Source: a bacterium
Lineage (GTDB): Bacteria > Patescibacteriota > Minisyncoccia > Phycocordibacterales > JBBTRF01
Direction: 5' to 3'
Assembly: GCA_037130265.1 (NCBI GenBank)
Contig: JBAXTI010000002.1
Span: 26,870 to 90,869 of the forward strand
DNA length: 64,000 nucleotides
The notes beneath the pieces were generated by a model. It did no database searches. It saw only the letters and a list, made by a program, of their open reading frames with translations, and was not told the DNA's origin. Numbering within the stretch: the first letter of the stretch is position 1; the number at the start of each line of letters is the position of its first letter. The position numbers and the translations under genes were made by a program. This document shows positions 2 to 21,089 of the stretch, piece by piece.

Positions 2-1684
2 GGACACCATCGTCTCTCGATCCTCGACATCGATCCGCGCTCGCATCAGCCGATGGCTTCGGCCGACGGAGCTTTGCGGATTGTTTTCAATGGCGAGATT
101 TACAATTTCAAGCAGGTGAAAGAACAGCTTTCCGGGAAATATCAATTCAAGACTACTTCAGATACGGAAGTGCTCCTGTGTGCCTATAAAGAATGGGGTG
201 TGAATATGACCGAGCAGATTCGCGGCATGTATGCTTTTGCGCTCTACGATACCGCACAGCAGAAGATCGTCCTCATGAGGGATCATGTGGGGATAAAGCC
301 GCTGTACTATTATGCGAAGGCCGGAGTGTTCGCCTTTGCTTCCGAAATGAAGGGTCTCACAGCACTTCTTTCAGCCAAAGGACTGTCTCTGAAGGTACTC
401 GCGGATTCCGTGGAGTTGTTCATTACCCTCGGGTATGTGCCGTCGCCGTACACTATCTACGAAGATGTCTTTCGAGTTGAGAGATCGTCCGTTGTAGAAT
501 ACGATCTCTCGGCAAGGGCAATTTCAAAAAAGGCGACATATCGCCAAAACGTTTCAGTAGTGAAAGGGGAAGAAGAATTTGCTCAATTACTAGAAACACA
601 AGTCCTCTCGCATCTTGTTTCTGACGTGCCGGTTGGGGTATTTTTTTCCGGCGGTACGGACTCCTCTCTCGTTGCCGCTATTTTGCAGAAGCATCGCATC
701 AGTTTGGAGACGTTTAGTATTGCCGTCGATCGAAAAGCTGAGGATCAGGCTTACTTCAAGCGTATTGGTGTGGCACTGCAACTGAAGACAAATGTGTTTT
801 CGTTTGGCGTCGACGAGTTTGATGCAGTGTACGAAGAGGTGATGTCGAAGATCGACGAGCCGACGCATGACAATTCTATTTTTCCGACCTATTTTGTCTC
901 GAAGAAGGCCGCCGAAAAAGTGAAGGTGGTGCTGTCTGGCGAAGGCGGTGATGAGTACTTTTTCGGTTATCACCGCGACACGGTATTGTCAAAGTTGTCT
1001 GCAAAGCAGGATTATAATATTACCTGGCTCGACCGCCTCTTTTTCCTGATGCCGAATGTGCGCTCGAAAAATGCACTCTTTGAGCGTTTTTTTATTCTTT
1101 TTGGCCAGCCGTTTAGTTTTTATCTGCTGCATATGTCGCCTTCGAAGGACCTCGCAAGTCTCGAGGGGTGGCGTCTCTGGAAGGGTTTGTTCAGGCAAAA
1201 TGCCACGACGCCACGTCTGCTCGATCAGGACTTTTATCTCGAAGGTGATCTGCTGAGAAAGACTGATTTTGCCACCTCGTATGTTTCGATAGAGGGTCGC
1301 GTACCACTCCTCGATGTAGATGTGGTGCGAAATAGTACACAATTTTCCGATCAGAGCCTTGTTGGAGGCGTTTCGAAAGCTTTTCTGAAAAAAATATTGA
1401 CACGATATTTGCCGAAGGAGCTGGTGTATCGCAACAAAAGCGGTTTCGGCATTGATCTCCGAGGCTTGTTCAAGAGCTCGCGCCTCTTGAAAAGAGAGTT
1501 GGTCGAGGCACAGCAATATCTGAGGGAACGCTTACTGTTGCGGCCGGAGCATGAGAACGCGGAGCGCTTGATGGCTCGTTATCCAAACCTGGCTTTCGCT
1601 CTCATCTCTTTATTCCGAGTGTTGAAGAATGTTGATTTCAGTGGTGGAGCCGATGACAGTCGTTCGTCTTCTGTATTTAAATAA
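2..1684 (+). CDS. asnB: asparagine synthase (glutamine-hydrolysing) family amidotransferase; 5' end lies outside the window
   Basis: The frame is open from position 2. The translation 'GHHRLSILDIDPRSHQPMASADGALRIVFNGEIYNF...SDTEVLL...' matches the AsnB glutaminase-domain core (RLSIIDLS..GHQPM...IVFNGEIYN). The downstream synthetase domain has the SGGTDSS PP-loop. The N-terminal Cys-containing start is missing at the window edge. Confidence 0.85.
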   Translation, partial: GHHRLSILDIDPRSHQPMASADGALRIVFNGEIYNFKQVKEQLSGKYQFKTTSDTEVLLCAYKEWGVNMTEQIRGMYAFALYDTAQQKIVLMRDHVGIKPLYYYAKAGVFAFASEMKGLTALLSAKGLSLKVLADSVELFITLGYVPSPYTIYEDVFRVERSSVVEYDLSARAISKKATYRQNVSVVKGEEEFAQLLETQVLSHLVSDVPVGVFFSGGTDSSLVAAILQKHRISLETFSIAVDRKAEDQAYFKRIGVALQLKTNVFSFGVDEFDAVYEEVMSKIDEPTHDNSIFPTYFVSKKAAEKVKVVLSGEGGDEYFFGYHRDTVLSKLSAKQDYNITWLDRLFFLMPNVRSKNALFERFFILFGQPFSFYLLHMSPSKDLASLEGWRLWKGLFRQNATTPRLLDQDFYLEGDLLRKTDFATSYVSIEGRVPLLDVDVVRNSTQFSDQSLVGGVSKAFLKKILTRYLPKELVYRNKSGFGIDLRGLFKSSRLLKRELVEAQQYLRERLLLRPEHENAERLMARYPNLAFALISLFRVLKNVDFSGGADDSRSSSVFK

Positions 1685-3875
1685 CATACGAATCAGCCTT
1701 CTTTTTGAAATGATGTCCTTGATTGTCGAAGTCCAAGTACAGTTCCTTTTTTTGAAAAGGGAATAGGCAGAGGAATAAAAAACGGGAGAACGGTTTCTTC
1801 GGATGTAATCTCAAAAAACGATTCAGTGTGAAAAATACAAGAAGTCTTTTTTCGAGAAAGAAGTTGTAGGGTGCAATAACCACTTGCTCCTTACGGTATT
1901 CTTCCATGTTCTCGCTCAATTGCCCCGCCCTCTTCCTAAAGGTGCTTACTTGTTTATTAAATGACCAAAGTGGTGCATGTTGGGAAAAAGCAAACCATAA
2001 AGCATAATCACCAGCAAGGCGATATTTTGAGATATCTGGACACGCCTTTTTCCAGAGTGATTTCTTCCAGAATACACTAGCCTGTTCCACAAAGTAAGCG
2101 CTTCGCCCGTAGGCTCCTTTCTGAAGCCAGTCACGTCGATATGTCAGACATGCCCCAGGAGAAATGACACTACCAACCTCATTGCTCGTTGAGTCGATTC
2201 CTTTAATCCACTCAACCTCTGGATCTGCAGAAAAAATGTTACAGACCGATGCAAAGGCGCCAGCAAGGTAGTTGTCGTCCGAATTAATGTAGGCGAATAT
2301 CTCGCCGGTTGCGCGGGCGAAGCCTTTTTCTATCGCATCGTACATCCCGCCATCTTTTTCGGAATACCACTTGAGCGTGACTTTTTTACAGCGTCCTGGA
2401 TACTCGCCTTTACACAACAGTTGCTCATAGGATTTCACAATGGCAATCGTTTCGTCGGTAGATCCACCATCTTGGATGATGTATTCAATTTCGAAATTGC
2501 CTTCTTGCGAAAGAACGCTATCCATTGTTTCTTTGATATATTTTTCGCCGTTGTAAACCGGGGTAATGATACTAAATTTTAATTCTTCCCCTGGTGTCAC
2601 TTTGCAAACGAACACTGCTTCGGTTCGGTAAAGATGCCTCTCTACTAGGGTGAAGCCAGCTCGAGTGAGTATCGATTCAACGGAAGATCGAACAGGGGAT
2701 CCTTTCGCGGAGTGTAGATGGAAAATAAGAGTGCTGTTGGTCACTGATCGTAACGTTAAAATGAGCTTCGTAGCGTCACGAAGTTCAGTAGGAGTGGTCG
2801 AACAGAACACAACATCTGCCGTTTTTTTATGCTGTTCAGATGATATGTCGATAACAGAAGTTGAAGTCGCTTCGAGTCTTCGTGCAAGGAGTGAATTTGA
2901 ATCATCAGACTTCCTTTTGTCAGTAAAGATCTCGGCAAACGATTTTCCTGGAACGTATCGTTGTATAAGAGCCTTTGCGTCTGGATGTTTCGGTCTCGTC
3001 ATGTTCCAGTTCATGGTCCAAAATATTTTGCGTACCATTTTGAAGATGAGACTTGAAAATGCTGGCGGGAGGCTACTGTACGTATACGAGGCTGCAAGTA
3101 GGTCCTTCATCGGTTCCCACTTGTCGCGTCTTTCGACAATGACCGTCCAGTTTTTTTTGAGAATAGGTAGAAGGCTTTCGTTGTTATCTCTCGCGTATCG
3201 ATGTACAAAAAGTTTCTGTCGCGGATTTTCATAGGGAAGACAGTCGATCAAAAACATAAACGAGGAATCTATGACGTGTATTTCTTCGGCATTCTCGATT
3301 ACGGTGCAATAGTCAAAAATGTTTTCCGTCAGGTTTTTATTTGGCTCGAACACTGCGCAATGTTTGCTTATCAACTCGCGCTTAATGAGATATTTTCTTT
3401 CCGGGTCTTCATGTAGAAAAGCGTAAGCCTCTTTGTGCGGGACTTTTTCAAAAAGGCCCCGCTCTCTTTCAAGATCCCTTTCAACAAAAAAGCTCTCCCA
3501 TTTTTTTAAGAGGGGGAGTCCGGCTATTTCGTAGAGCTGTTTTTCGAACTGGATACTATGTTTGCTCCAGATGAGATAGCTATGGCCAATGATCTTAATG
3601 ACATCAAATTCCATTTCTTCCTTTTGGGGATTGTCGAGAAAAACTGTATTCTCGTTGAGTTTCAAGGGTGTTTTGTCTATCTCGAAAACACGTAGATTTG
3701 TTAAGTCACGGTACATAAAGCGCACTGAAGGGTAGTTGTGTTTTTTGGCAAAAATGGTGACGTGTTCGTACTGCTTGCAATACTCCCTCACCATTCCATG
3801 GCATATGATCTGGTCACCCATTCCAAATGGGTAGTAGAGTAATACCTTGAGTGCTTTGTTGTTAGGGACATTCAT
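1677..3875 (-). CDS. multidomain glycosyltransferase: N-terminal GT9-like (heptosyltransferase-like) module, central unknown domain, C-terminal GT2 domain
   Basis: The N-terminal ~240 aa are paralogous to the adjacent 236-aa ORF and share the identical stretch EIHVIDSSFMFLIDCLPY. The GDxI motif near the N-terminus and the 'IDSSFMFL' motif resemble the GT9 'GNDSGPMHLAAA' region. The C-terminal ~300 aa read 'ITPVYNGEKYIKETMDSVLSQ...DGGSTDET...SDDNY', which is a GT2 signature, and are paralogous to the ORF at 20136-21077. The start could be the GTG at 3935; the ATG at 3875 aligns better with the paralog and avoids overlap with the upstream gene. Confidence 0.65.
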   Translation of the reverse strand: MNVPNNKALKVLLYYPFGMGDQIICHGMVREYCKQYEHVTIFAKKHNYPSVRFMYRDLTNLRVFEIDKTPLKLNENTVFLDNPQKEEMEFDVIKIIGHSYLIWSKHSIQFEKQLYEIAGLPLLKKWESFFVERDLERERGLFEKVPHKEAYAFLHEDPERKYLIKRELISKHCAVFEPNKNLTENIFDYCTVIENAEEIHVIDSSFMFLIDCLPYENPRQKLFVHRYARDNNESLLPILKKNWTVIVERRDKWEPMKDLLAASYTYSSLPPAFSSLIFKMVRKIFWTMNWNMTRPKHPDAKALIQRYVPGKSFAEIFTDKRKSDDSNSLLARRLEATSTSVIDISSEQHKKTADVVFCSTTPTELRDATKLILTLRSVTNSTLIFHLHSAKGSPVRSSVESILTRAGFTLVERHLYRTEAVFVCKVTPGEELKFSIITPVYNGEKYIKETMDSVLSQEGNFEIEYIIQDGGSTDETIAIVKSYEQLLCKGEYPGRCKKVTLKWYSEKDGGMYDAIEKGFARATGEIFAYINSDDNYLAGAFASVCNIFSADPEVEWIKGIDSTSNEVGSVISPGACLTYRRDWLQKGAYGRSAYFVEQASVFWKKSLWKKACPDISKYRLAGDYALWFAFSQHAPLWSFNKQVSTFRKRAGQLSENMEEYRKEQVVIAPYNFFLEKRLLVFFTLNRFLRLHPKKPFSRFLFLCLFPFQKKELYLDFDNQGHHFKKKADSYVI

Positions 3876-3886
3876 GGGGATCGTTT

Positions 3887-4597
3887 TTATTCGGTAATAA
3901 TAGTCCAACTCTTTTTCAGTATCGGGAGCTGCCACTCTGGGTTCTGTCGAGAATATCGATGTACAAAACGTTTCTGTTCAGGGTTCTTGTAAGGCAGGCA
4001 GTCAATAAGGAACATAAAAGAAGAGTCGATAACATGAATTTCCTTCGCTTTCTCTATGGTCCTACAATAGTCAAAAATATTGTCAGTGAGCTGTTTGTTG
4101 GGCGTAATAACGTAGTAATCTTTGCCGACATAGGTTCTTTTTATAACAAAGTTTCTACTTGGATCTTCGTGTAAGAATACGAAGTCCCCGATCGGTGCAA
4201 TCTGTCTAATGAGCGAATGTTCTCGATCAAGATCTCTTTTTACCAAAAAGCTCTCCCATTTTTTCTCCAACGGAACTTCGGCGATTGCATAGAATTGCTG
4301 TTCAATCTGAATTCCAGATGTTGCGTCCAGATTATCGAAACCAACAGTAAGAACTTTGTTGTATTTCAAATTCCCAAAACAGTTATTGAGAAAGATACGT
4401 ACTCGAGCCTGCGCATCGTCCCCCTTGATGACGGTAAGGTTTTGTAGGTCACGATACATGAAGGCTACCGAAGAATAGTTGTGGGCTTTTGCAAAGATAG
4501 TCACTCGATCATACCTTTTACAATACTCTCGGACGATGCCGTGGCACATGATGTGATCACCTAGCCCGAGGTGATGATAGATGAGAATACTAGACAT
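3887..4597 (-). CDS. GT9-like (heptosyltransferase-like) single-module protein, paralog of the N-terminal domain of the 1677-3875 gene
   Basis: The 236-aa ORF is by eye about half identical to the N-terminal domain of the neighbouring gene (LGLGDHIMCHGIVREYCKRY..., EIHVIDSSFMFLIDCLPYKNPEQKRFVHRY). It has an ATG start and the same orientation, indicating tandem duplication. Confidence 0.55.
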   Translation of the reverse strand: MSSILIYHHLGLGDHIMCHGIVREYCKRYDRVTIFAKAHNYSSVAFMYRDLQNLTVIKGDDAQARVRIFLNNCFGNLKYNKVLTVGFDNLDATSGIQIEQQFYAIAEVPLEKKWESFLVKRDLDREHSLIRQIAPIGDFVFLHEDPSRNFVIKRTYVGKDYYVITPNKQLTDNIFDYCRTIEKAKEIHVIDSSFMFLIDCLPYKNPEQKRFVHRYSRQNPEWQLPILKKSWTIITE

Positions 4598-4754
4598 AAT
4601 TCTTTTTTATTGTCTTAATTTATCTGCCATAGAAATGCACCATCTTCTGATGGGAGAAGTATAGCATTTCTTATATTTTATGCTAAAATGCCCGTATGAA
4701 CGAGGCTATTTGGGGGAATGGCGCTTGGCGTCGGAACTAAATTAACCGCATACT

Positions 4755-5495
4755 ATGAAGAAGATTCTCATTATAGGGGAAAGTTGTCGAGATATCTTTG
4801 TGTATTGCAAGGCGAATAGGTTGTGCCCCGATATTCCTGTTCCGGCACTCAGTATTGTGAGTCAAACAGAAAACCCGGGTATGGCAAAAAATGTCGAACG
4901 CAACATTCGGAGTATTTTTGAAAATTGCGACATTGTAACCAATGATGGTTGGGAGAAAGTGACAAAAACAAGATACATGCATCTCGATAGTAATCATATG
5001 TTCATTCGCGTCGACACCGACCACACTATTCCACGCATCGATGTTAAAAAAGTTCCTCTTGGATATGACATCGTCGGTATCTCTGATTACAACAAGGGCT
5101 TCCTCACTGACAAAGATATCCAATATCTTTGCGAACATCATCGTAATGTGTTTATTGATACAAAAAAAATACTGGGTGAGTGGGCAAACAAAGTGAAGTT
5201 CATCAAGATTAATAACTTCGAGTATGAACGCTCCAAGCACTCGATTCCGCCGAAACTCAAAAATAAGATTATCTATACAAAAGGAGAGGCGGGTGCGCAT
5301 TACAAGGGTAAGATGTACCCAGTAAGGCATAAAGTCGAAGTGAAGGATGTTTCCGGTGCGGGCGACAGTTTTTTCGCGGCACTTATCGTAAGGTATGCCG
5401 AGACGGAGGATATTGAAGAAGCTATCCATTTCGCGAATGAGTGCGCATCTAAGGTGGTGCAGCAAAAAGGGGTCTCGGTGATAAAAAGACCCTAG
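4755..5495 (+). CDS. PfkB-family sugar kinase (ribokinase/HldE-kinase-domain-like)
   Basis: The C-terminal 'DVSGAGDSFFAALIV' is the PfkB GAGD anion-hole motif. The N-terminus 'KILIIGESCRD' resembles the RfaE/HldE kinase-domain start. At 246 aa it is short for the family. Confidence 0.7.
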   Translation: MKKILIIGESCRDIFVYCKANRLCPDIPVPALSIVSQTENPGMAKNVERNIRSIFENCDIVTNDGWEKVTKTRYMHLDSNHMFIRVDTDHTIPRIDVKKVPLGYDIVGISDYNKGFLTDKDIQYLCEHHRNVFIDTKKILGEWANKVKFIKINNFEYERSKHSIPPKLKNKIIYTKGEAGAHYKGKMYPVRHKVEVKDVSGAGDSFFAALIVRYAETEDIEEAIHFANECASKVVQQKGVSVIKRP

Positions 5496-5608
5496 GTTCT
5501 TTCCTTAAATTTTGCTGCTGAATGAGGCTAGACACGGTGCTGTCCTTAGGATATTATTGCTCGGTAATTAGTGAATATAGCATATCTATTTTTTTACCTC
5601 GTTTTCTC

Positions 5609-6673
5609 ATGAAAGATCCGAAAAAGCCGATGAAAGCAGCTATTCTCGAGAAGATCGACGAACCTTTGGCGATTAGAGAGGTAGAGTTAACGGACCTTGT
5701 TTCTGGCCAGGTATTGGTTCGGGTGTTGGTGAGTGGTATTTGCGGAGCACAGCTTCAGGAGATTGCGGGCAATAAAGGCAATGCAAAATTCGTCCCTCAT
5801 CTCCTGGGTCACGAAGGCTGCGGCATTGTTGAGGCACACGCTCCCGATGTTACTACCGTGAAGGTTGGCGACAAGGTGGTCATGCATTGGATGAAAGGTG
5901 ATGGCATTGAGGCTGATTTTCCGGTCTATATTTTGAATGGTAAAAAAATCCGCAGTGGCAAGGTGACGACCTTTAGCGAATACTCAGTCGTCTCCGAGAA
6001 TCGCGTCACTGCCGTGCCACACGAGACGCCAAATGATCTCTGTGCGTTGCTTGGCTGCGGATTGTCGACGGCACTTGGAGTGATGGAGAATGAGGCACAG
6101 GTGAAGGTAGGTGAGAGTGTGATGATCGTGGGCGCCGGCGGCTTAGGACTCAATCTTTTGAACGCGGCGATAATCGCCGGCGCCAAGCCAATCATCCTCG
6201 TCGATGTACACGAAAGCAAACGCAAGATGGCGGAGGCTCTCGGCGCGCACCTTTTCATTAATTCAAAAGAAAAAGGTATCAAGGAAGAATTGATTGAAAA
6301 ACTGAATCTGAAAGATCTCGACGTCATTGTTGACACTTCTGGCAACAAGCACGCTGTGGAAGGAACCCTGCCATTGCTCGGCGGTAACGGCCGCTACATT
6401 TTTGTCGGCCAGCCGAAACCGGGTGAGACAATTGAGCTCAAGAACGCGCACCACATGTTTGACGGCAAGGGTAAGATGATTAAGGCCACTCAGGGCGGCA
6501 AATTCAATCCGACCAAGGACATCCCGCGTTATTTGCAAATGCATAAGACCGGCGCGCTTAAGATCCATCACATTATTAGCCACCGCATCGAGCTCGACAA
6601 GATTAACGAGGCGATTGACATGGTGCGCAACGGCCAGGCTGGCCGCATTATCATTGATATTTGCCCAGAATAA
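5609..6673 (+). CDS. zinc-dependent medium-chain alcohol/sugar dehydrogenase (MDR family)
   Basis: 'GICGAQLQEI', 'GHEGCGIVE' and 'GDKVV' are catalytic-Zn ligand region motifs. The Rossmann motif 'VMIVGAGGLGL' is present. The start is ambiguous among in-frame ATGs at 5522, 5609 and 5630 (MKAAIL). Confidence 0.8.
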   Translation: MKDPKKPMKAAILEKIDEPLAIREVELTDLVSGQVLVRVLVSGICGAQLQEIAGNKGNAKFVPHLLGHEGCGIVEAHAPDVTTVKVGDKVVMHWMKGDGIEADFPVYILNGKKIRSGKVTTFSEYSVVSENRVTAVPHETPNDLCALLGCGLSTALGVMENEAQVKVGESVMIVGAGGLGLNLLNAAIIAGAKPIILVDVHESKRKMAEALGAHLFINSKEKGIKEELIEKLNLKDLDVIVDTSGNKHAVEGTLPLLGGNGRYIFVGQPKPGETIELKNAHHMFDGKGKMIKATQGGKFNPTKDIPRYLQMHKTGALKIHHIISHRIELDKINEAIDMVRNGQAGRIIIDICPE

Positions 6674-6697
6674 AACGTTCTCCCGAGAACTCACCAC

Positions 6698-7690
6698 ATG
6701 ACTATCGTTGCTAAAACGAACAGTTCTAAAGCCTCTTCGCTTCTTGAGGCGTACAAAAAGATGCAGCTGATCCGCATCACAGAACAGGAGATCGCCAATT
6801 TTTATTTGGCAAACAAAGTGATGAGCTTCGTACACTTTTATGTCGGCCAAGAGGCGGTTGCGGTGGGTGTTTGTGCGGCGCTCGCAGCCGGCGACAAGGT
6901 CCTCGGCAACCATCGCTCGCACGGCCATTATTTAGCGAAGGGTGGCGACCTAAAGCGCATGGTCTGCGAGTTGCTTGGCAAATCGCACGGCTCTTCAAAA
7001 GGGAAGGGTGGCTCGATGCACATGATCGACAAGTCGGTGAATTTTGTCGGCTCGACCCCGATCCTCGGCAGCGTCGTGCCGCTCGCTTGCGGCGTCGCTT
7101 TCGAGCAGAAATATAATAAAAAGAATGATATTACTGTTTCGTTTGTCGGCGACGGCGCTTCCGAAGAGGGTGTGGTGTACGAGACAATCAACCTCGCGGC
7201 GTTGTTCAAGCTTCCGTACCTTATCGTCGTCGAGAACAATCTCTACTCGGTGAATTCAAAGATCAAAGACCGCCGGTCCGAAGGCTACAGCGTCGAAAAG
7301 ATCGTCACCGGTCTCGGTGCCCGTTACCTGAAAGCCGACGGTAACGACCTCGAAGACGTGCTCGCGATGGCGACCGAAGCAGTGAAGGTCATTCGCGCGG
7401 GTGGTGGACCAATAGTGCTCGAATGTATCACCTATCGTCACATGGCCCACAGTGCGCCGCTTTTTGACGACGCCCAAGGCTATCGCGAAGAAGATCCGAT
7501 TGAGAAGCGCTTGGAGCGCGACCCTATCAAGCGGTTGAAGCAGACCCTTTTAGCCGCCGACGTTTCGGAAGAGCAGTTCGCACAGATCGAAAAAGAGACT
7601 TTCGACACTATACTCGCCGCGATTGCTTTCGCGAAGGACGCACCATTTCCAGCGAAGGAGACTTTATATACTGACGTCTACGCGAAATAA
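6698..7690 (+). CDS. ThDP-dependent dehydrogenase E1 component alpha subunit (PDH/acetoin-DH E1-alpha-like)
   Basis: 'YVGQEAVAVG', 'HRSHGHYLAKGGD', 'GKGGSMHM', 'GDGASEEG' and 'YRHMAHS' fit the E1-alpha ThDP-binding fold. Confidence 0.8.
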   Translation: MTIVAKTNSSKASSLLEAYKKMQLIRITEQEIANFYLANKVMSFVHFYVGQEAVAVGVCAALAAGDKVLGNHRSHGHYLAKGGDLKRMVCELLGKSHGSSKGKGGSMHMIDKSVNFVGSTPILGSVVPLACGVAFEQKYNKKNDITVSFVGDGASEEGVVYETINLAALFKLPYLIVVENNLYSVNSKIKDRRSEGYSVEKIVTGLGARYLKADGNDLEDVLAMATEAVKVIRAGGGPIVLECITYRHMAHSAPLFDDAQGYREEDPIEKRLERDPIKRLKQTLLAADVSEEQFAQIEKETFDTILAAIAFAKDAPFPAKETLYTDVYAK

Positions 7691-7716
7691 AATCAGAATC
7701 ACGTTTCAATAAAAAC

Positions 7717-8790
7717 ATGCCCGAACGAATAATTAAATGTAACGAAGCGATTAAAGAAGCCACCGATCAAATGATGGCTGTTGACCCGAGTGTGTTCGTG
7801 ATCGGCCTCGGTGTTTCGTACAAGAATGGTGCGGACGGCACCACAGCAGGATTGAAAGCAAAATATCCGGAGCGAATCTTCGACGTCCCCGTCTCTGAAG
7901 CTGGCTTCACTGGCATGGCGGTGGGTGCGGCGATCAGTGGTTTGCGACCGATCGTTCATCATGGCCGTATCGAATTTGCCTTGCTCGCTTCTGATTTTAT
8001 TTTTACCCAAGCCGCAAAATGGAACTATATGTTTGGCGGCGACAATCCGGTGCCCGTGGTCTTCCGTATCGCCATCGGTCGTGCATGGGGCAATGGTCCG
8101 CAACACACACTCTCGACGTATTCGATGTTCGGCAATGTTCCAGGTTTGAAGGTGGTGATTCCGTCGACGCCGTACATGGCGAAAGGCTTGCTTGTCTCCG
8201 CTCTCCGCGACCGAAACCCTGTCGTATTCCTCGAGCCTCGCTATTCATATGCTATGAAGCAACACGTGCCCGAAGAGATCTACTCCGAACCGCTTGATAA
8301 GGCAAAGGTGTTTCGAACAGGGAAGAGTGTGACTGTTGTCGCGTACGGCGACGGATTTATTGGCGCGTTGCAGGCCTGTGAATTGCTCAATGCGGTAAAT
8401 GGCAATGGTACCGCCACCGCAGACCTTGCCGACATCGATCTGATCGACCTCGTGAGTATTAATCCCGTCGACCACGAGACTATCGCTCGCTCGGTGCAGA
8501 AGACCGGACACTTGTTGTGTATCGACACAACGATTGACTCGTTCAGCGTCGGTTCGGAAATAATCGCTAAGGTTGCGCAAAATACTGCGGTGCATTTGAA
8601 AAAGCCACCAGTTGCACTTGCCTGTCCGAATGTCGCGTGTCCAACCTCGACCGCACTCACCGAATCTTACTATCCGACCAAGGTGGATATCGCGAACGCC
8701 ATCCTCGCTCTGCAAGGGAAGCCGGCAATCACGCATCCGCTCACTTTTGATGATTTGCATACTCACGCGGCGTTTGTGATCCAGGGGTAA
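7717..8790 (+). CDS. ThDP-dependent dehydrogenase E1 component beta subunit (transketolase-like pyrimidine-binding plus C-terminal domain)
   Basis: 'DPSVFVIGLGVS', 'RIFDVPVSEAGFTGMAVGAAISGLRP', 'VVIPSTPYMAKGLL' and 'NPVVFLEP' fit E1-beta. The gene lies 27 nt downstream of the alpha gene, suggesting an operon. Confidence 0.8.
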   Translation: MPERIIKCNEAIKEATDQMMAVDPSVFVIGLGVSYKNGADGTTAGLKAKYPERIFDVPVSEAGFTGMAVGAAISGLRPIVHHGRIEFALLASDFIFTQAAKWNYMFGGDNPVPVVFRIAIGRAWGNGPQHTLSTYSMFGNVPGLKVVIPSTPYMAKGLLVSALRDRNPVVFLEPRYSYAMKQHVPEEIYSEPLDKAKVFRTGKSVTVVAYGDGFIGALQACELLNAVNGNGTATADLADIDLIDLVSINPVDHETIARSVQKTGHLLCIDTTIDSFSVGSEIIAKVAQNTAVHLKKPPVALACPNVACPTSTALTESYYPTKVDIANAILALQGKPAITHPLTFDDLHTHAAFVIQG

Positions 8791-8987
8791 AAAGGAGCTA
8801 GATCGTTCAGAAAAGCCCTAAAATTGGCCACAAAACTTCTATTGACAGTAGTATTGAAACATGCTACAACTCAACCTAGTCAGGAAATGCCCTGTTGGCA
8901 GGTCTTGAATTTTAAAAACGGCAAAAGCCGTAAAAAGCAACAAACCAGGCCCCAAAAAGGCCGCAAACCTCTTGAAAGGAGGCCGCA

Positions 8988-9788
8988 GTGCAACAGCACA
9001 CACTCAATGCCGTGACCCTTAACGTGGGCCGCGGATTTCCGGGTATCGAAAAGACGCTCGGGTTCTTCCATGGACAGGCCGCCGACGTCTTACTCTTGCA
9101 GGACCTTCGCGCCGATCACATCGGCGCGTTTCTCGTAATCTTCGGTCCTTCGGCGCATTTTGTGCCGATGTGTTACCACTTCTTCAGGGGTGGCATCGGC
9201 TGGGTGCCGGTCGGTGTCGGGATTTTCTCGAGACATCCACTGATCAACGTCTCGGCCTATGCCTACGTCGGTGCCGTGCAACCGGTCCAGAATCTGGATG
9301 GCTACGCACACGATGCTCAAGGTGCCTCCTTCGCGACGGACCTAGATCGTCTCCGCAAGACGGAATCTCGCCTCGCGGTCTTCGCCGACGTCGTCGTCCC
9401 GGGCTGTGTGCCCGTTCGTTTCGGTACCACTCACGGGGTTTGGACGCCCGGCGGTAAGGCCGACGATCATCAGCGCAAAGCCATGCGTATTCTCCGCAGT
9501 ATCATGGAGGAACGTATGATGGATGGTGCCGTAATGGCCGGCGACTTCAATGCCGCCGCTGGTGGCGAAATCCATCAGATGTTGACCGGATCCTCGGTTT
9601 ATAACTACCGGATGCCACACGGCATCACGAATACGGTGGATTGGGTGAAGCGTGGCAGATCCGGACCGCACTTGGTTGTGGACCAAATCTACGCTGCACA
9701 TCTCGACATTGCCGGTGTGGATGTGCATTCCGGAGTGAGCGATAACTTGGCGCTCACCTTCACGGTGCAGCTTCGGCCGGATCACTGA
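8988..9788 (+). CDS. endonuclease/exonuclease/phosphatase (EEP) family protein
   Basis: It has a GTG start preceded by AAAGGAGG 5 nt upstream. The motifs 'LNVGRG', 'VLLLQDL', 'AGDFNAA' and C-terminal 'SDNLALTF' (SDH-like) fit EEP. GC content is visibly higher here than in flanking genes, which explains the multiple overlapping spurious ORFs in other frames. Confidence 0.6.
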   Translation: MQQHTLNAVTLNVGRGFPGIEKTLGFFHGQAADVLLLQDLRADHIGAFLVIFGPSAHFVPMCYHFFRGGIGWVPVGVGIFSRHPLINVSAYAYVGAVQPVQNLDGYAHDAQGASFATDLDRLRKTESRLAVFADVVVPGCVPVRFGTTHGVWTPGGKADDHQRKAMRILRSIMEERMMDGAVMAGDFNAAAGGEIHQMLTGSSVYNYRMPHGITNTVDWVKRGRSGPHLVVDQIYAAHLDIAGVDVHSGVSDNLALTFTVQLRPDH

Positions 9789-9890: not shown

Positions 9891-10721
9891 CTACTTCCGC
9901 CACAGATACAGCGCGATTGGGAAGTAGTAGCTATTTTTGAATGTCTCTGCGATTTGAAAATTGAAATCACGATCAGCACCACGACCCATGAAAGACGGCC
10001 AGACTCTATTTTTAAGCTTTCTGAATTGCACTTTTTCTATGACCTCGCGCTTGAACATGGAGACACCAGCGGTGCCAGGGTAAGGTGATACGTTGCCGAA
10101 GAAGAGCTTGTTGAGCAGGCGCAGGCGTTTGTAGTGAAAGTGAGTCAATTCATTCAGGTGTGGAGAGATCTTGGCGACCAAACCTTTGGCTTTTTGTGAG
10201 AGCTTATAAATATCCGCTGGTCCAAGGATGTTACCGTCTATTTTGTATTCCGCTTTTGTGCCGACCAGATCTTCTTTGAAGCGTATGTAATCGGTAGTGA
10301 TATGTGTCGCGTTGTGTTTGATGAGAAGGTCGTGTTGAATCTCCAATCGGTTTAGTAGGGATGCATCATCGCCGTCTTGGAAGGTGATCAATTCGCCGCA
10401 CGCTTTGGCGAAGCCAAAATTGCGCGCGGCGTAACCGGCGTTGGTGTTTCGTTTCAGTATCGGATCGAGACGATCGACATCGTCGCTGGGTAAAGCATAG
10501 TAGTGGATCCGCGGATCTTCTTTTGATATTGCTTCCACAACCCGCCTCGTGTCGTCGATGCTATTGTCGTCCACCACGATCACCTCCATGTTCGTGTACG
10601 TCTGTCGAATGATTGATTCGATAGCTGTTTTGATCGTCGCACCATTGTTGTGCGCGGGAACAATGACCGAGATCAGTGGTCTTGCTGGAGTTGTCGCGGT
10701 ACTCGTCGAATCATTTTTCAT
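9891..10721 (-). CDS. family 2 glycosyltransferase
   Basis: 'ISVIVPAHNNGATIKTAIESIIRQTY..EVIVVDDNSIDDT' and 'FQDGDD' are the GT2 DXD region. Confidence 0.8.
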   Translation of the reverse strand: MKNDSTSTATTPARPLISVIVPAHNNGATIKTAIESIIRQTYTNMEVIVVDDNSIDDTRRVVEAISKEDPRIHYYALPSDDVDRLDPILKRNTNAGYAARNFGFAKACGELITFQDGDDASLLNRLEIQHDLLIKHNATHITTDYIRFKEDLVGTKAEYKIDGNILGPADIYKLSQKAKGLVAKISPHLNELTHFHYKRLRLLNKLFFGNVSPYPGTAGVSMFKREVIEKVQFRKLKNRVWPSFMGRGADRDFNFQIAETFKNSYYFPIALYLWRK

Positions 10722-12181
10722 GGGCGTAGTATATCATCAATGAATTGGCCGTAGGCGAAGGAAAAATGCTCTTTCGTGTGATGTTCTCGGACATAGTTCC
10801 AAGCAGCGCGCGCCATCTTTTCGAGCGTTTCCGGCGCTGTTTTTTCGATGGCACGCGCCTGGCGACAGATCGAATCTACTGTCGGCTTTTCTAGAATAAT
10901 CGCCGGTGCTTCTTCCAGTAAACCCGTCTGCTTGGTGACGATCGGAAACACGCCGGCGTGCATCGCCTGAATCACCGCCCCTGAAGTGCCTTCTGAGGCC
11001 GATGGGTAGATGAGGGTAGCACATGTATTTGCGATTGCGATGAATGTTGTATTTCCGACTACCATGTCCCCAGCCTTGTCTATCCTCGGTCGCGGATAGC
11101 AAGAGATGTTCGGTAATGTCAGTTCCTGAGCGTACGTCGATCGAAACTCTTTTTCGTATGTCGCAGGACCAACAATATGCAAGTGCAAATCCGGCATGGT
11201 CGCAAATGCTTCCACTACTAGATCGAGACCTTTGAGAATAGCGCCACCACCGCTGAAAAAGAGGAAGTGTTTTCGGGCTTCTGCGAAATTCTTGCTCGAG
11301 ATCTCAGAGATTTCAAATGTCTGTGTGACCGATATCGGAATATGTCGGATCGGCTTGTTGAATCGTGCGAACGTCGCGTGCACTGTTTTGTTGCCGAAGC
11401 CTTCGAGAAAATCGGCGTAAGCGGGGTTGTTTAGTCCAGCCTCGACTCTTTGTGCAGGTATAATAACGCCATGCCGCTGCTTCAGGTCGGCGAGTCGCGC
11501 GGCTTCAGCGGCATTCTGAAAGCCGCTCTCCGATGAAGTGATATGCATCACTTTTTTGCACGAAGCCTGAAGGGGTGAGGTGCCGTTGGCACTGGCGGTA
11601 CACCACCGCTCCAGATTTTGGCGGACATCGACGACGACGTTGTACGGCTTTCGAGGCATAAAAGAGGTATTCGACGCATCGATTACGTCGACTTCATACC
11701 CTCGCATCGAAAAGAGTCGCGCAATCTCGGAACATTCCCAATAGTTGGTGTGCGGGTCGGTGAACCTCTGCCAAGGAAGCAATGAAAAAGGGCCGGTGAG
11801 ATAGGATAAGAGCACTGTACCACGTCTCTGTGTCTTCGTGTGAATCGTTACCGTGCCATACAGTCGCCTGCGAACCTTGTTTCGATAAGTGATGAAGACT
11901 CGATAGTACCATTTTAGCCGTTCGAAGTGCACAGTGTCACTTTTTATCCATCGACGGATCTGCTGCCTGATTAGTGTTACTTGCGAACGAAAAATTTTCT
12001 CATAAAAAGCGTGGCCATATTCTTTGGAGAGCGTGACCCCGGTCGGCGTGCGCAGGCCATTGGCGACCACGAATGGTTGTTGAGGCCACCACGCCCATAT
12101 CTCCGCGAACACTTTTTTCGTATATTCCGGTCTACAGAAAATGATAAAAGCGACCGGTGAGGTGTTTTTATTCGGCGACAT
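10718..12181 (-). CDS. GT4-type (GT-B fold) glycosyltransferase with N-terminal extension
   Basis: The C-terminal 'YPSASEGTSGAVIQAMHAGVFPIV' is the GT4 EX7E-type motif. There is a 4-nt overlap with the downstream GT2 gene and a 14-nt overlap with the upstream asnB, suggesting an operon. Confidence 0.75.
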   Translation of the reverse strand: MSPNKNTSPVAFIIFCRPEYTKKVFAEIWAWWPQQPFVVANGLRTPTGVTLSKEYGHAFYEKIFRSQVTLIRQQIRRWIKSDTVHFERLKWYYRVFITYRNKVRRRLYGTVTIHTKTQRRGTVLLSYLTGPFSLLPWQRFTDPHTNYWECSEIARLFSMRGYEVDVIDASNTSFMPRKPYNVVVDVRQNLERWCTASANGTSPLQASCKKVMHITSSESGFQNAAEAARLADLKQRHGVIIPAQRVEAGLNNPAYADFLEGFGNKTVHATFARFNKPIRHIPISVTQTFEISEISSKNFAEARKHFLFFSGGGAILKGLDLVVEAFATMPDLHLHIVGPATYEKEFRSTYAQELTLPNISCYPRPRIDKAGDMVVGNTTFIAIANTCATLIYPSASEGTSGAVIQAMHAGVFPIVTKQTGLLEEAPAIILEKPTVDSICRQARAIEKTAPETLEKMARAAWNYVREHHTKEHFSFAYGQFIDDILRP

Positions 12182-13958
12182 GATATTTTTTGTGAGACTG
12201 CAACCAGATCTCTAGGCAGTAGAGCACCCAAATCTTGTAATTATATTCGTCACGGCCCTCATCGAAAAAGTGGTGGAGCATTTGATCTACGAACAGTTTA
12301 TTCAAGAAGGAAAATACCTCAGCCTGCGGATTGCCGAGCGTCTTTCGCACCTCTGCCTTGAAGCCGCCGGCGCGCAACCACTTTTTTACCGGCGCGCCAA
12401 AGCCCTGCTTGCGTCGATGTACGAACTCCTTCGGCATTACTTCGCCGAGGAGGTCTTTCAGAATGCGCTTATACATCACGTTGTTCGTCTTGTATTCTTC
12501 CGGCAGGTTATAGACATATTCAGCGAGTTTATGATCCAAAAAAGGCGAGCGGATCTCGAGCGAATTCATCATGCCCGCGCGGTCTGCCTTCACCAAAAGT
12601 AGGCCGGGCAGGTAGGTGGTGAGGTCGAACATATTTATTTTTTCAGCGGATGAAAGTTTCGAGTCTTTTACCTGCGAATTGAGGATGCTGATTTTGCTGG
12701 CGCACGAAGACGCAACCTTCCACAATTGCTTTCGCTCCGACGGGCTGAACACGCACACCATCTGTAAATAGCCTGACAAGGGATTCTGGAACATTTTTTC
12801 CACAAAGTTCTTTCGATACGACAAATTCTTGTGCCGAGTGTACCAGCCGTAGCCTAAAAAGAGTTCGTCTGCGCCGTCGCCGGACAGCGCCACTTTCACC
12901 TTGCTTGCCGCGAGACGTGATACTAGAAATTGCGGAAAATCCGAAGAATCAGCATGCGGCTCGTCGAAGTAGGCGATAGTCGAACGTAATTCATGGATCG
13001 CATCGTCTTTCGCTTGCAGCGGGTAGTGGTCCGTACCGATCTTCTTCGACGCCTCGAGTGCAAAGGGAAGTTCGTTGATGTAGTCCTGGTAGCCGACAGA
13101 AAAGGTTTTGATCGGCGCTTTCGAAAATGACTGCGCAATGTGGGTGACCAAGGTCGAGTCCACACCGCCCGACAGGAACGAGCCGATCTCGACGTCCGCA
13201 ATCATACGCTTTTTTACCGCTGCAGTGAGTAGGGTGCGCACCGTCTCGCGCGCCTCTTCATAAGTTGGGATTTTCTTTGTCCGTTTTTCCAGCTGCCAAT
13301 ATCGGGAAATTGAAAGTTTGCCTGAGTCCACAGTCGCCTGCGATGCTGGCGGCAAAGTATGCACATTCTTGTACACGGTCCTCCATGGTGGAATGTACAT
13401 GAGGGTTAAGTAGTCATCGAGCGCGCTTGGGTCGAGAACACCCTTGACCATGCCACTTTCGAAGATTGCCTTGATTTCCGAGGCAAAAATTAGCGCGCCG
13501 TGTTCATCGTGCGCATAATAGAGCGGTTTTTTGCCGAAGCGGTCGCGCGCCAAAAAGAGTCGCTGCTTCGCTTCGTCCCAGATCGCGAAAGCGAACATAC
13601 CTTCCAAATGGATCGGGCAGTCCTCGCCGTACTCCTGGTACGCCTTCAAAATGACCTCGGTGTCGGAGTTTGTCGAAAAAACGTGGCCTTTCGCAGTAAG
13701 TTCAGTGCGTAGTTCGCGATAGTTGTAGATCTCACCGTTGAAAGTGATCGTGAGCGGCGCTTTGTTGTCGCGCATTGGCTGATGTCCACCGGAGAGGTCA
13801 ATGATCGAGAGGCGAGTCTGGGCGAGGATGCATTGATCGAATTGCACAATCCCTTTGTCGTCCGGACCTCTCTTTGCCAAAGTGCCGAGCATCCGGGCGA
13901 GCGCCGCGTCGTCGTAGCTTTCAAGACTGATGCCGCTGATGCCGAGGATGCCGCACAT
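12168..13958 (-). CDS. asnB: asparagine synthase (glutamine-hydrolysing) family amidotransferase, full length
   Basis: The N-terminus 'MCGILGI' carries the Ntn Cys2. The motifs 'RLSIIDLSGGHQPM', 'ITFNGEIYNY' and PP-loop 'SGGVDSTLV' are present. This is the second AsnB paralog in the window. Confidence 0.9.
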   Translation of the reverse strand: MCGILGISGISLESYDDAALARMLGTLAKRGPDDKGIVQFDQCILAQTRLSIIDLSGGHQPMRDNKAPLTITFNGEIYNYRELRTELTAKGHVFSTNSDTEVILKAYQEYGEDCPIHLEGMFAFAIWDEAKQRLFLARDRFGKKPLYYAHDEHGALIFASEIKAIFESGMVKGVLDPSALDDYLTLMYIPPWRTVYKNVHTLPPASQATVDSGKLSISRYWQLEKRTKKIPTYEEARETVRTLLTAAVKKRMIADVEIGSFLSGGVDSTLVTHIAQSFSKAPIKTFSVGYQDYINELPFALEASKKIGTDHYPLQAKDDAIHELRSTIAYFDEPHADSSDFPQFLVSRLAASKVKVALSGDGADELFLGYGWYTRHKNLSYRKNFVEKMFQNPLSGYLQMVCVFSPSERKQLWKVASSCASKISILNSQVKDSKLSSAEKINMFDLTTYLPGLLLVKADRAGMMNSLEIRSPFLDHKLAEYVYNLPEEYKTNNVMYKRILKDLLGEVMPKEFVHRRKQGFGAPVKKWLRAGGFKAEVRKTLGNPQAEVFSFLNKLFVDQMLHHFFDEGRDEYNYKIWVLYCLEIWLQSHKKYHVAE

Positions 13959-15246: not shown

Positions 15247-15255
15247 GGTATTTGC

Positions 15256-16092: not shown

Positions 16093-16122
16093 TGGTGTGT
16101 TGCGAAAAAGAATATTGAAATA

Positions 16123-21077: not shown

Positions 21078-21089
21078 TTGCCTAGTATA

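Follow-up and report, generated by a model that had tools for sequence, protein, structure and literature searches.

The host of the locus is a Patescibacteria (CPR) MAG, and the term window refers to the whole 64-kb stretch of DNA that was analysed. Five forward-strand genes encode a PfkB kinase, an MDR Zn-ADH, E1 alpha, E1 beta and an EEP-fold protein, and two genes on the opposite strand adjoin them (Table 1). An earlier note on this DNA had listed the same five genes, and both this content, as judged by Pfam and NCBIfam, and the grouping are borne out: ADH-E1a-E1b-PfkB-EEP recurs as a single operon in L216, one of the related loci (labeled with L numbers, such as L003, L005 and L216) that were compared with the window.

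Table 1. Features of the locus, with positions numbered from the first nucleotide of the window
Feature	Coordinates	Strand	Basis or domains
752-aa multidomain glycosyltransferase	1677..3935	-	GT2 = PF00535, residues 455-572, C-terminal
unk236, 236-aa protein	3887..4597	-	AF2 + Foldseek; divergent from cassette
Short PfkB kinase, 246 aa, HldA/RfaE-domain-I-like	4755..5495	+	Pfam, NCBIfam
MDR Zn-ADH, first core gene	5630..6673	+	Pfam ADH_N + ADH_zinc_N
ThDP-dependent E1 alpha, stand-alone glycan-associated clade	6698..7690	+	PF00676 (E1_dh), E=6e-69
E1 beta, pyrimidine-binding + C-terminal domain	7717..8790	+	PF02779 (Transket_pyr), PF02780 (Transketolase_C)
EEP-fold phosphoesterase, accessory	8988..9788	+	PF03372 (Exo_endo_phos), 29.9 bits vs 24.5 cutoff

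Core and accessory genes

The mechanical ORF of the ADH begins at 5522, and the MKAAIL start of its homologues is at 5630. The protein is similar to ordinary class I/III alcohol dehydrogenases, a likeness that would suit small-molecule substrates as well. It has no structural-Zn cysteines, and C38, H61 and C143, the ligands of the catalytic Zn, do not vary among homologues. Asp192, located after beta-2, is also invariant and suggests a preference for NAD(H), by which the enzyme could make a carbonyl acceptor rather than reduce a branch.

The E1 pair retains the ThDP-activating and catalytic residues, namely the beta Glu (SEAGF), the beta His (QHT) and the alpha His (AHS). Remodelling is seen in the loops that make up the lipoyl channel of PDH and in the active-site/phosphorylation loop of E1 alpha, which reads YRHMAHSAP where PDH has YRYxGHSMSDP. 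No lipoyl domain is found on E1 beta by Pfam search, whereas the Rhizobium PDH E1 beta used for comparison carries one.

The kinase has its best NCBIfam match to TIGR02198 (rfaE_dom_I, heptose-7-P kinase) at 100.6 bits, far under the cutoff of 345, and its best PDB sequence match to Burkholderia HldA (4e84); a GAGD motif is visible in its translation. Orthologues with 58-67% identity lie directly after E1 beta in L005, L097, L209, L210, L211 and L216, and the short kinase never occurs together with the long canonical HldA-like PfkB, which is present in L007, L212 and L214. The kinase is thus accessory to the module and exchangeable.

The EEP gene has its own RBS and follows a 197-nt gap. The AF2 model of its product (pLDDT 95.4) is most similar in Foldseek to EEP phosphodiesterases/phosphatases such as TDP2, ANGEL2 and Nocturnin. 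The gene accompanies the core in the window, L003, L213 and L216, and a GmhB-type HAD is found in none of these EEP-bearing loci; EEP may stand in for GmhB in some loci. The window protein carries SDN instead of the nearly invariant SDH, with Asn at the catalytic His, so the phosphatase role proposed below may fail here.

The reverse-strand protein unk236 has no match in Pfam, NCBIfam or PDB sequences. Those of its 740 homologues that are given source names are all hypothetical, and the named phyla among them are all CPR except for one Nitrospira-labelled MAG. For its AF2 model (pLDDT 93.5), the top seven Foldseek matches are all GT9 proteins, including WaaF 1psw (E=2.8e-5), TibC, WaaC and a Veillonella GT9, and unk236 is predicted from this model to be a new compact GT9-like (heptosyltransferase-like) glycosyltransferase. 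It adjoins the core in the window, L003, L005, L097, L188, L213 and L216, and 19 equal contig sizes are common to the E1 alpha and unk236 match lists. The N-terminal domain of the 752-aa glycosyltransferase (approximately 3132-3845) is an unk236 paralogue; tblastn with the L005 and L003 homologues matches 3132-3845 at 46-53% identity.

Conservation and genetic context

The conserved unit is ADH-E1 alpha-E1 beta, which is 59-93% identical across lineages. The kinase and EEP genes are accessory, each missing from several loci and hence non-obligatory. The ADH gene is directly upstream of E1 alpha in 14/14 related loci that have the region present, and the stop and start codons of these two genes often overlap. 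E1 beta follows E1 alpha in every locus, and the two E1 genes often overlap.

All 15 independent core contexts are glycan loci, in which the core is most often partnered by genes of the ADP-heptose pathway and by GT9 or GT9-like transferases. Near the core in related loci, heptose genes score 184 bits (GmhA), 158 bits (GmhB) and 259 bits (HldD), PF01467 proteins score 189 bits with the RfaE-II equivalog model, over its cutoff of 181.5, and GT9 is also present, its place being taken in some loci by GT9-like unk236. GT9-ADH-E1a-E1b-HldC-like forms a single operon in L215, and L216 carries unk236-ADH-E1a-E1b-PfkB-EEP with HldD-like and HldC-like genes. The 64-kb window contains no GmhA, GmhB, HldC, HldD, canonical GT9 or SDR, so the heptose link for this genome comes from its HldA-like kinase, from the GT9-like fold and from synteny in the relatives.

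Base composition

The five genes had been proposed to form a GC-rich, horizontally acquired block. The elevated GC holds in a relative sense only: positions 5630-9788 have a value of 0.529, at the 99.5th percentile of same-length windows, but the core matches housekeeping genes and is not exceptional. Its GC values (ADH 0.509, E1a 0.532, E1b 0.528) compare with 0.516 for SecA, 0.525 for Eno and 0.540 for iPGM among the housekeeping genes of the window (mean 0.503, sd 0.028), and its synonymous-codon fit z values are +0.6, +0.4 and +0.3, respectively. The ADH-E1ab core therefore has native composition and codon usage. The kinase does not belong to the GC-rich cassette; with a GC of 0.424 it falls in a low-GC left block (1677-5495; 0.422, 0.2nd percentile), together with the 752-aa glycosyltransferase gene (0.428). 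The EEP gene has a GC of 0.586 (99.9th percentile), and the right flank, at 0.48-0.51, barely differs from the cassette. The contrast is thus produced by the low-GC left block, kinase included, and the high-GC EEP gene.

Acquisition of the block is further contradicted by the closest relative, L213, in which the core is 90-93% identical and the EEP and GT9-like genes are 58-60% identical, while the kinase gene is absent. The core is the best-conserved part of the locus; it is the flanks that have been exchanged. The core trio was not recently imported.

Stand-alone status of the E1 pair

The E1 pair is stand-alone, as the earlier note had described it. Searches by tblastn with Pfam-verified E2 and E3 find neither in the 64-kb window, and both are absent from 15 independent related loci. 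E2 is present in 0/13 fetched CPR-clade loci, 0/15 independent contexts overall and 0/40 metagenome E1 loci that share the clade motif of E1 alpha (HRSHGHYLAKGGD), compared with 62/73 PDH-like loci in the comparison set.

E1 alpha is 64-92% identical to its Patescibacteria homologues, after which identity falls to ~40% for PDH. Its phylogeny, a check suggested in the earlier note, places it not within housekeeping PDH but in a CPR clade with bootstrap 100/100. This clade nests within a glycan-associated E1 superclade that is apart from PDH in 93/100 replicates, that has glycan genes in 34/40 loci and that pairs DegT with E1ab in 21/40.

Proposed function

The trio recurs, usually beside heptose-sugar genes, and so probably makes an unusual sugar for the surface glycan. 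The constant presence of the pair within glycan loci makes a sugar-tailoring role like that of AviB1/AviB2 reasonable. We consider the chances about even that ADH-E1ab is an E2/E3-independent ThDP carboligase module that attaches two carbons from pyruvate to a sugar of the heptose pathway. In the mechanism that follows, the donor, the acceptor, the site attacked and the sequence of steps are our inferences. E1ab would decarboxylate pyruvate, for which the malic enzyme in L214 is a possible source, to hydroxyethylidene-ThDP. Having no lipoyl-E2 recipient, it would ligate the hydroxyethylidene unit to the carbonyl of a heptose-pathway sugar phosphate or nucleotide, and this acyloin-type addition would either branch the sugar with an acetyl or 1-hydroxyethyl group or lengthen its chain. 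The ADH would either oxidise a sugar hydroxyl to give the acceptor carbonyl or reduce the new keto group, with the remaining redox step performed by a BudC/FabG-like SDR in loci having one. The short HldA-like PfkB would then phosphorylate O-1, EEP (or GmhB in other loci) would take off the distal phosphate, and the sugar would be activated by an HldC-like adenylyltransferase, of which the window has none. Transfer would be performed by GT9 or GT9-like proteins, here unk236 and the N-terminus of the 752-aa glycosyltransferase.

Alternative explanations

In a strict AviB1/AviB2-like form of sugar tailoring, E1ab would attach acetyl to C-4 of an NDP-4-keto-6-deoxyhexose and the MDR ADH would reduce this branch to 1-hydroxyethyl, so that a yersiniose- or paulomycose-like sugar results. 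Stand-alone E1 pairs in glycan loci have precedent. The 4,6-dehydratase-like extended SDRs, cupins and DegT near the core in L003, L097 and L215 agree with this, as does the frequent DegT pairing in the superclade. The NDP-4-keto-sugar setting supposed in the earlier note is, however, not found: the window encodes neither an NDP-hexose 4,6-dehydratase nor an NDP-hexose synthase, a nucleotidyltransferase or any other deoxysugar enzyme, and the recurrent partners are ADP-heptose genes and GT9. The ADH has an NAD-type Asp and no NADPH signature, and the known ketoreductase Pau7 is an AKR, not an MDR enzyme. This form of branching is unlikely.

Another explanation, which is quite unlikely, is that E1ab supplies a precursor, condensing a 2-oxoacid unit with an aldose phosphate in a transketolase/DXS-like reaction. 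The resulting ketose or heptose phosphate would feed the kinase/phosphatase/adenylyltransferase route in genomes where the normal sedoheptulose-7-P supply is missing. This explanation draws on the homology of E1 alpha/beta to split transketolase and DXS (weak Pfam/NCBIfam matches), on the lack of GmhA near the core in the window, L005, L097 and L216, and on an operon order in which ADH and E1 precede the kinase. GmhA is nevertheless present in L007, L209, L211, L212 and L214, which implies normal S7P entry; L210 has a split transketolase besides E1ab; and the invariant ADH would be left without a clear role.

There is a poor chance that the product is not a sugar. An AcoAB-like E1, the MDR ADH and a BudC-like SDR would make a small diol or acyloin, which PfkB phosphorylates and a PF01467 enzyme activates with a nucleotide, so that it is joined to the glycan as a phosphodiester. 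Classical SDRs in some loci match the BudC and FabG models, the ADH is like small-molecule ADHs, PF01467 includes glycerol-3-P cytidylyltransferases and EEP has a phosphodiesterase fold. Against this, the PF01467 proteins reach the RfaE-II cutoff, the kinase matches HldA and RfaE-I best, GT9/GT9-like transferases co-occur with GmhA, GmhB and HldD, and no earlier case of a phospho-diol/acyloin substituent on a glycan is known to us.

A still poorer chance is given to fermentation, with E1ab as a pyruvate decarboxylase, the ADH reducing acetaldehyde to ethanol or handling acetoin to regenerate NAD+, and the glycan position incidental. CPR bacteria are generally known as fermenters, and translational coupling joins a class I/III-like NAD-type Zn-ADH to a ThDP enzyme of the pyruvate type; yet the contexts are glycan loci in 15/15 cases, the core shares an operon with genes for an HldA-like kinase, for an HldC-like protein or for GT9, and the sister superclade is likewise glycan-associated. 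Finally, it is very improbable that the pair is an ordinary PDH/acetoin-dehydrogenase E1 with E2 and E3 encoded elsewhere in the genome, for although the curated NCBIfam models that fit it best describe PDH E1 alpha (y-type) and beta, and E1 alpha matches human PDH E1 alpha at E=3e-49, both scores are under the equivalog cutoffs (315 bits against 394 for TIGR03182; 248 against 321 for NF006667), and the separate clade, the lack of E2 in 15/15 contexts and the remodelled active-site/phosphorylation loop argue against it.

Comparison with known systems

PDH E1 (alpha2beta2, y-type) and AcoA/AcoB share the fold, the ThDP/Mg motifs and the catalytic His and Glu with the window pair, and alphaproteobacterial PDH E1 alpha is 38-42% identical to its E1 alpha. 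The window pair differs in having no E2/E3 and no beta lipoyl domain, in its separate clade, sub-cutoff scores and remodelled lipoyl-channel loops, and in its glycan context.

The ADP-L-glycero-beta-D-manno-heptose pathway (GmhA, HldA/HldE, GmhB, HldC, HldD) and GT9 are represented as a whole set around the core in related loci, and in the window by the HldA-like kinase and two GT9-like domains. The window kinase is ~60 aa shorter than canonical HldA, and the transferase is a compact 236-aa GT9-like protein lacking a Pfam match. Neither a ThDP enzyme nor an MDR ADH is known to us in the canonical pathway.

The AviB1/AviB2 and Pau11/Pau12 pairs are PDH-E1-like proteins of 325 and 345 aa that are proposed to add pyruvate-derived two-carbon branches, and knockout of pau11 abolishes paulomycin production (PMC4425429, PMC4753412). 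Together with AlmDI/DII of aldgamycin, these avilamycin and paulomycin proteins belong to Streptomyces deoxysugar pathways and, like the window pair, consist of a stand-alone E1 alpha (~325 aa) and beta (~345 aa) without E2/E3 within a sugar cluster; the likeness to AviB1/AviB2 and Pau11/12 is one of description (size and context). The Streptomyces pairs serve antibiotics and TDP-hexose 4,6-dehydratase chemistry, whereas the window pair is from Patescibacteria and a cell-surface glycan, and its type is accompanied by an HldA-like kinase, EEP/GmhB, HldC-like, HldD-like and GT9(-like) proteins and obligately by an MDR Zn-ADH in place of an AKR.

In yersiniose A synthesis by Yersinia pseudotuberculosis, YerE and YerF attach an acetyl group from pyruvate in a ThDP-dependent reaction and then reduce it to 1-hydroxyethyl (PMC4753412). 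YerE is a single-chain, acetolactate-synthase-type flavoprotein that acts on a CDP-3,6-dideoxy-4-keto-hexose, whereas the window enzyme is of the E1 alpha/beta type. As is proposed for the window module, YerE/YerF modify a sugar of a cell-surface polysaccharide.

Identity of the E1 alpha/beta pair

The five genes proposed in the earlier note, namely a short PfkB-type sugar kinase, a zinc-dependent MDR dehydrogenase (ADH), the alpha and beta subunits of a ThDP-dependent E1 enzyme (E1ab) and an EEP-family protein, are confirmed by Pfam, NCBIfam and their translations. By Pfam and alignment, the two E1 subunits have the folds and residues of 2-oxoacid dehydrogenase E1 components. The ThDP-binding and catalytic residues are kept in translations and alignment, including the GDGA..NN motif, the alpha-subunit His (AHS), and the Glu (SEAGF) and His (QHT) of the beta subunit. 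The curated equivalog cutoffs for pyruvate dehydrogenase (PDH) are missed (TIGR03182, 315 against 393.85; NF006667, 248 against 321).

Coordinates of features in the window and in related loci used for comparison
Locus	Feature	Position	Strand	Details
Window	AsnB-type glutamine amidotransferase	53-1684	+	Runs past window start
Window	Tandem GT9-like domains	1677-4597	-	Free-standing unk236 and N-terminus of adjacent 752-aa GT2 protein
Window	Low-GC block	1677-5495		GC 0.422, 0.2nd percentile; holds 752-aa glycosyltransferase, unk236 and kinase
Window	unk236	3887-4597	-	GT9-like AF2 fold
Window	Short PfkB kinase	4755-5495		246 aa; PF00294
Window	MDR zinc ADH	5630-6673		ORF from 5522; homologues start at MKAAIL (5630)
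Window	E1 alpha	6698-7690		PF00676, 6e-69
Window	E1 beta	7717-8790		PF02779 and PF02780; without lipoyl domain
Window	EEP protein	8988-9788		PF03372, 29.9 > 24.5
Window	AsnB-type glutamine amidotransferase	12168-13958	-
Window	Second low-GC island	20136-22181		GC 0.41-0.44; codon z -1.2, -2.0; GT2 and GT11 (fucosyltransferase-like)
Window	Giant ORF	44034-58466	+	4810 aa; no Pfam match in first 1000 residues
Window	LamG proteins	58472-60565, 60612-62687		About 690 aa; triple LamG/concanavalin-like domains
L003, L216	Unannotated family	4047-5141, 2278-3363		361-364 aa; pair 43% identical
L209	IS element	4987-7134		HTH_Tnp_1 and rve integrase
L210, L211	Unannotated family	11902-12666, 11878-12660		254-260 aa; pair 53% identical; faint DUF6165 similarity
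L210	Split transketolase	14406-16153	-	N- and C-terminal halves as separate genes
L212, L214	Unannotated family	10044-10874, 10022-10855	-	276-277 aa; pair 73% identical
L214	Malic enzyme	3184-4314	-	Between HldC-like and GmhA genes

A tblastn search of the 64 kb window with Pfam-verified E2 and E3 queries finds neither gene, and both are absent from all 15 independent genomic contexts examined for the CPR (Patescibacteria) clade of this E1 alpha, as the earlier note's description of a pair lacking E2 and E3 would have it. The control for this absence is a peptide-pattern scan of genome contigs with E1 alpha, which also matched alphaproteobacterial PDH and returned at least 79 PDH loci; a single member of the clade (locus L009) is among the matches listed. 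In the PDH-like control loci of at least 6 kb, E2 adjoins E1 in 62 of 73 and E3 in 30 of 73. A second scan, of metagenome contigs with the motif HR.HGHYLA.GGD, is specific against PDH, recovers about five members of the CPR clade and reveals a superclade, a wider group of glycan-associated E1 proteins that have this motif in common at 35-47% identity. Among 40 motif-sharing metagenome loci, none has E2, 34 have glycan genes and 21 have a DegT aminotransferase, mostly as the immediate neighbour of the E1ab pair; several also carry SIS and PF01467 genes. A large non-CPR group of stand-alone E1ab pairs lies within loci L089-L208 (e.g. L103, L114, L117, L132, L146, L147 and L182), and AviB-type enzymes may be among the motif-sharing non-CPR members.

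The best matches of E1 alpha are proteins from Patescibacteria, Minisyncoccota and Paceibacteria MAGs, with one at 92% identity followed by a plateau at 64-72%, while identity to alphaproteobacterial PDH is about 40%. A neighbor-joining (NJ) tree was built from 124 E1 alpha sequences, and 57 of these were used for a 100-replicate bootstrap. The CPR clade and the PDH clade are each recovered in 100/100 replicates with the window's E1 alpha outside the latter, and the CPR clade together with the motif-sharing metagenome proteins is split from PDH and the others in 93/100. The residue differences between the clade and PDH cluster in active-site loops (for example YRHMAHSAP versus YRYxGHSMSDP, and STP versus GHG). 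The earlier note had set E1 subunits firmly inside housekeeping PDH, with E2/E3 nearby, against its own reading, and the separate clades and the lack of E2 in the window and the 15 contexts run against that arrangement.

Gene order, composition and origin of the module

All 15 contexts are glycan loci, and in each of the 14 that include the region upstream of E1 alpha the adjoining gene there is ADH, in many cases with the stop codon of one gene overlapping the start codon of the next. Compared with the window, the closest relative, L213, is 93% identical in ADH, 90% in E1 alpha and 91% in E1 beta, but only 60% in unk236, an uncharacterised 236-aa protein encoded divergently from the cassette, and 58% in the EEP protein, and it lacks the kinase. 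The core is thus stable while its flanks are exchanged, which is the opposite of what the earlier note proposed in calling the cassette a GC-rich, horizontally acquired block. The gene order of L216, a locus found through a 42%-identical EEP homologue, is unk236 (minus strand) followed by ADH-E1a-E1b-PfkB-EEP and then HldD-like and HldC-like genes, so that all six window genes recur jointly in another lineage.

Horizontal import of the ADH-E1ab core is also rejected by GC, GC3 and codon usage. The GC contents of ADH (0.509), E1 alpha (0.532) and E1 beta (0.528) compare with a window mean of 0.493 and a housekeeping mean of 0.503 (sd 0.028), the housekeeping references including SecA (0.516), Eno (0.525) and iPGM (0.540). 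The synonymous-codon fit of the three core genes to the housekeeping set (z +0.3 to +0.6) is on par with that of SecA and Eno. The true outliers are the low-GC blocks and the EEP gene, the one gene with an abnormally high GC content (0.586, 99.9th percentile). The contrast that the earlier note saw does exist, but its reading as an imported GC-rich cassette is unsupported. The second low-GC island, like the first block, looks like a swapped-in glycosyltransferase segment. Between 4400 and 10000, promoter-like sites are not commoner than in shuffled sequence, and terminator-like sites (16 against 6.1 expected) lie within genes rather than in intergenic gaps.

Several further features were recorded in the related loci. 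An IS element is inserted beside the module in L209, which is also the sole context where ADH and E1 alpha differ in direction, ADH being inverted relative to SDR-E1a-E1b. Three unannotated protein families each recur near the module in two loci, one of them immediately after E1 beta (L212 and L214). The L214 heptose/E1ab locus contains the only malic enzyme gene seen, which may be a local source of pyruvate or NAD(P)H. A split transketolase shares the L210 locus with SDR-ADH-E1a-E1b-PfkB, which speaks against E1ab being a mere stand-in for transketolase.

Heptose-pathway partners

Five loci (L007, L209, L211, L212 and L214) place the core among heptose genes. The neighbours in this group match GmhA (TIGR00441, 184 bits), GmhB (158 bits; L209 and L211 only), the RfaE domain II adenylyltransferase (189 bits, above the 181.5 cutoff) and HldD (259 bits), and also include GT9 heptosyltransferases and FkbM-type methyltransferases. 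In L215, GT9-ADH-E1a-E1b-HldC-like form one operon. For the SIS and HAD genes, a route of the Kdo type (KdsD/KdsC/KdsB) was also weighed and rejected, as these neighbours match GmhA, GmhB, RfaE-II and HldD instead.

The 64 kb window itself contains no GmhA, GmhB, HldC, HldD, canonical GT9 or SDR gene. The top curated match of its short kinase is TIGR02198 (RfaE domain I, heptose-7-phosphate kinase), its top PDB sequence match is Burkholderia HldA (4e84), and its translation contains a GAGD motif. It remains below the HldA/RfaE-I equivalog level (100.6 versus 345 bits), at 246 aa versus about 310, and matches in two stretches. Orthologues of this kinase (58-67% identity) lie immediately after E1 beta in six loci, and in L209, L211 and L216 they are surrounded by GmhA/GmhB/HldC/HldD-type genes. 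A long, canonical HldA-like PfkB occurs in three to four other loci and never together with the short form, which suggests that the two kinases are functionally equivalent.

In the ADH, the catalytic zinc ligands (C38, H61 and C143) are invariant and the structural-zinc cysteines are absent. The Rossmann motif is GAGGLG, the invariant Asp192 after beta-2 is a signature of NAD(H) use, and the closest solved relatives are class I/III ADHs. A weak match to HpnZ prompted consideration of a phosphonate route (PEP mutase, phosphonopyruvate decarboxylase and ADH), which was rejected because no context contains PEP mutase. Four loci carry an SDR, which is of the classical BudC/FabG-like type and not an NDP-sugar SDR.

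PDB sequence searches were uninformative for the EEP protein and unk236, and fold prediction was therefore used for both. The AF2 model of the EEP protein (pLDDT 95.4) matches EEP enzymes, which are generic phosphoesterases, with a Foldseek E of about 1e-11. Residue 253 is Asn, giving SDN in place of the family's SDH, whose catalytic His is at least 90% conserved; SDH is retained in a 73%-identical relative, L003 and L213, and the SDN sequence is identical (100%) in two assemblies, L001 and L002. Judged from this substitution, the window's EEP protein may be impaired, and could be inactive or repurposed. EEP genes (four loci) and GmhB-type HAD genes (two loci) never occur in the same locus.

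The GT9-like protein and the surrounding locus

Searches with unk236 give no match in Pfam (including PF01075), NCBIfam or PDB sequences. Its AF2 model (pLDDT 93.5) has a predicted GT-B fold nearest to WaaC, WaaF and TibC, and the top seven Foldseek PDB matches are all GT9 (WaaF, TibC, WaaC and Veillonella GT9; E 3e-5 to 7e-4, probability 1.0, TM 0.44-0.54), although the protein has 236 aa compared with 320-350 aa for a normal GT9. Its 740 homologues are all hypothetical where the source gives a name, and their named phyla are CPR throughout except for one Nitrospira-labelled MAG. The match lists of unk236 and E1 alpha have 19 size-matched contigs in common. Loci without a canonical GT9 tend to carry a unk236-type protein, and either of the two is present in 12 of the 15 contexts. 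The window has two GT9-like domains in tandem, unk236 itself and the N-terminal part of its neighbour, a GT2 protein of 752 aa; both copies show about 46-53% identity to their L003 and L005 homologues. Residues from about 300 to 450 of the larger protein, between its GT9-like copy and the GT2 domain, carry no annotation.

The first 24.5 kb are a glycan locus of the ABC-transporter (Wzm/Wzt) type. It contains GT1, GT2 and GT11 genes, a Wzy_C-TPR protein and two AsnB-like amidotransferases, which suggest that the glycan includes amidated sugar acids. Housekeeping genes, including those for SecA, enolase, iPGM, Obg, GatB and GAPDH, fill the remainder. This part also holds a giant ORF followed by two LamG proteins, which are probably large surface proteins of the CPR organism.

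Proposed function and alternatives

These results establish a ThDP E1ab-ADH module that stands alone and is dedicated to glycans, is native to Patescibacteria and conserved widely among them, and is recurrently wired to an ADP-heptose-type activation and transfer system. By analogy, the most likely reaction of E1ab would be the addition of two carbons from pyruvate to the carbonyl group of a sugar. The ADH, being of the NAD type, could generate that carbonyl or, alternatively, reduce the product. AcoAB-type E1 enzymes perform acyloin chemistry, and in Kdo8N biosynthesis KdnB oxidises a sugar CH2OH, a precedent for an ADH that makes the carbonyl. The operon order (SDR)-ADH-E1a-E1b-PfkB-(EEP/HldD) hints that tailoring might precede anomeric phosphorylation. 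As a general mechanism, a two-carbon carboligase acting on a heptose-pathway sugar is put at even chances. The more specific product, an undescribed C-branched or two-carbon-extended heptose-derived (C9) sugar, is proposed tentatively; it would be activated in an ADP-heptose-like manner by the short HldA-like kinase, EEP or GmhB, and an HldC-like enzyme, transferred by a compact GT9-like protein, and constitute a phylum-wide surface-glycan trait of minimal genomes.

The sugar-tailoring idea of the earlier note survives in its stand-alone E1 within a glycan locus, with the sugar context revised to heptose. Its own version, C-branching of an NDP-4-keto-hexose, is unlikely: neither an NDP-hexose synthase nor a 4,6-dehydratase to supply the substrate is found in the window, and 4,6-dehydratase-like SDRs occur among the relatives in L003, L097 and L215 only. 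A role of the module in precursor supply is quite improbable, and assembly of a non-sugar phospho-substituent, for all the kinase and EEP genes beside the core, is given a very low probability. A fermentation module has little to recommend it among loci that are all devoted to glycans. A hidden PDH is scarcely credible given the separate clade and the lack of E2 and E3 in the window and the 15 contexts.

Significance and relation to known systems

CPR genomes are about 1 Mb in size, these bacteria rely on host-cell contact, and to our knowledge almost nothing is known of their surface chemistry. Across lineages the ThDP module retains 59-93% identity within glycan loci that otherwise change fast, which points to a specific sugar of importance to these organisms. 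The incompletely covered literature, including that on PDH E1, acetoin dehydrogenase, heptose and heptosyltransferases, yielded no description of the module in CPR. The MAG proteins currently go by no more than 'dehydrogenase E1 component' and 'transketolase C-terminal domain-containing protein', and at JGI their close homologues are listed as pyruvate dehydrogenase or acetoin oxidoreductase subunits. The existing annotation of E1ab is likely a misannotation that the present analysis corrects, and PDH-type labels could falsely imply PDH activity in CPR metabolic reconstructions.

If the proposal of a branched or extended heptose is true, the pair would represent the first sugar C-C ligase of the E1 type in an ADP-heptose context and would offer tractable enzymes for the still unproven AviB1/AviB2-type reaction, and the roughly 740 unk236-type proteins would make up a new family of GT9-like transferases. 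The analogues for two-carbon transfer by E1ab are AviB1 (AAK83190)/AviB2 (AAK83191) and Pau11/Pau12 (PMC4425429, PMC4753412). E1ab resembles the AviB1/AviB2-type pairs in that its alpha and beta subunits are encoded without E2 or E3 in a cluster for sugar biosynthesis.
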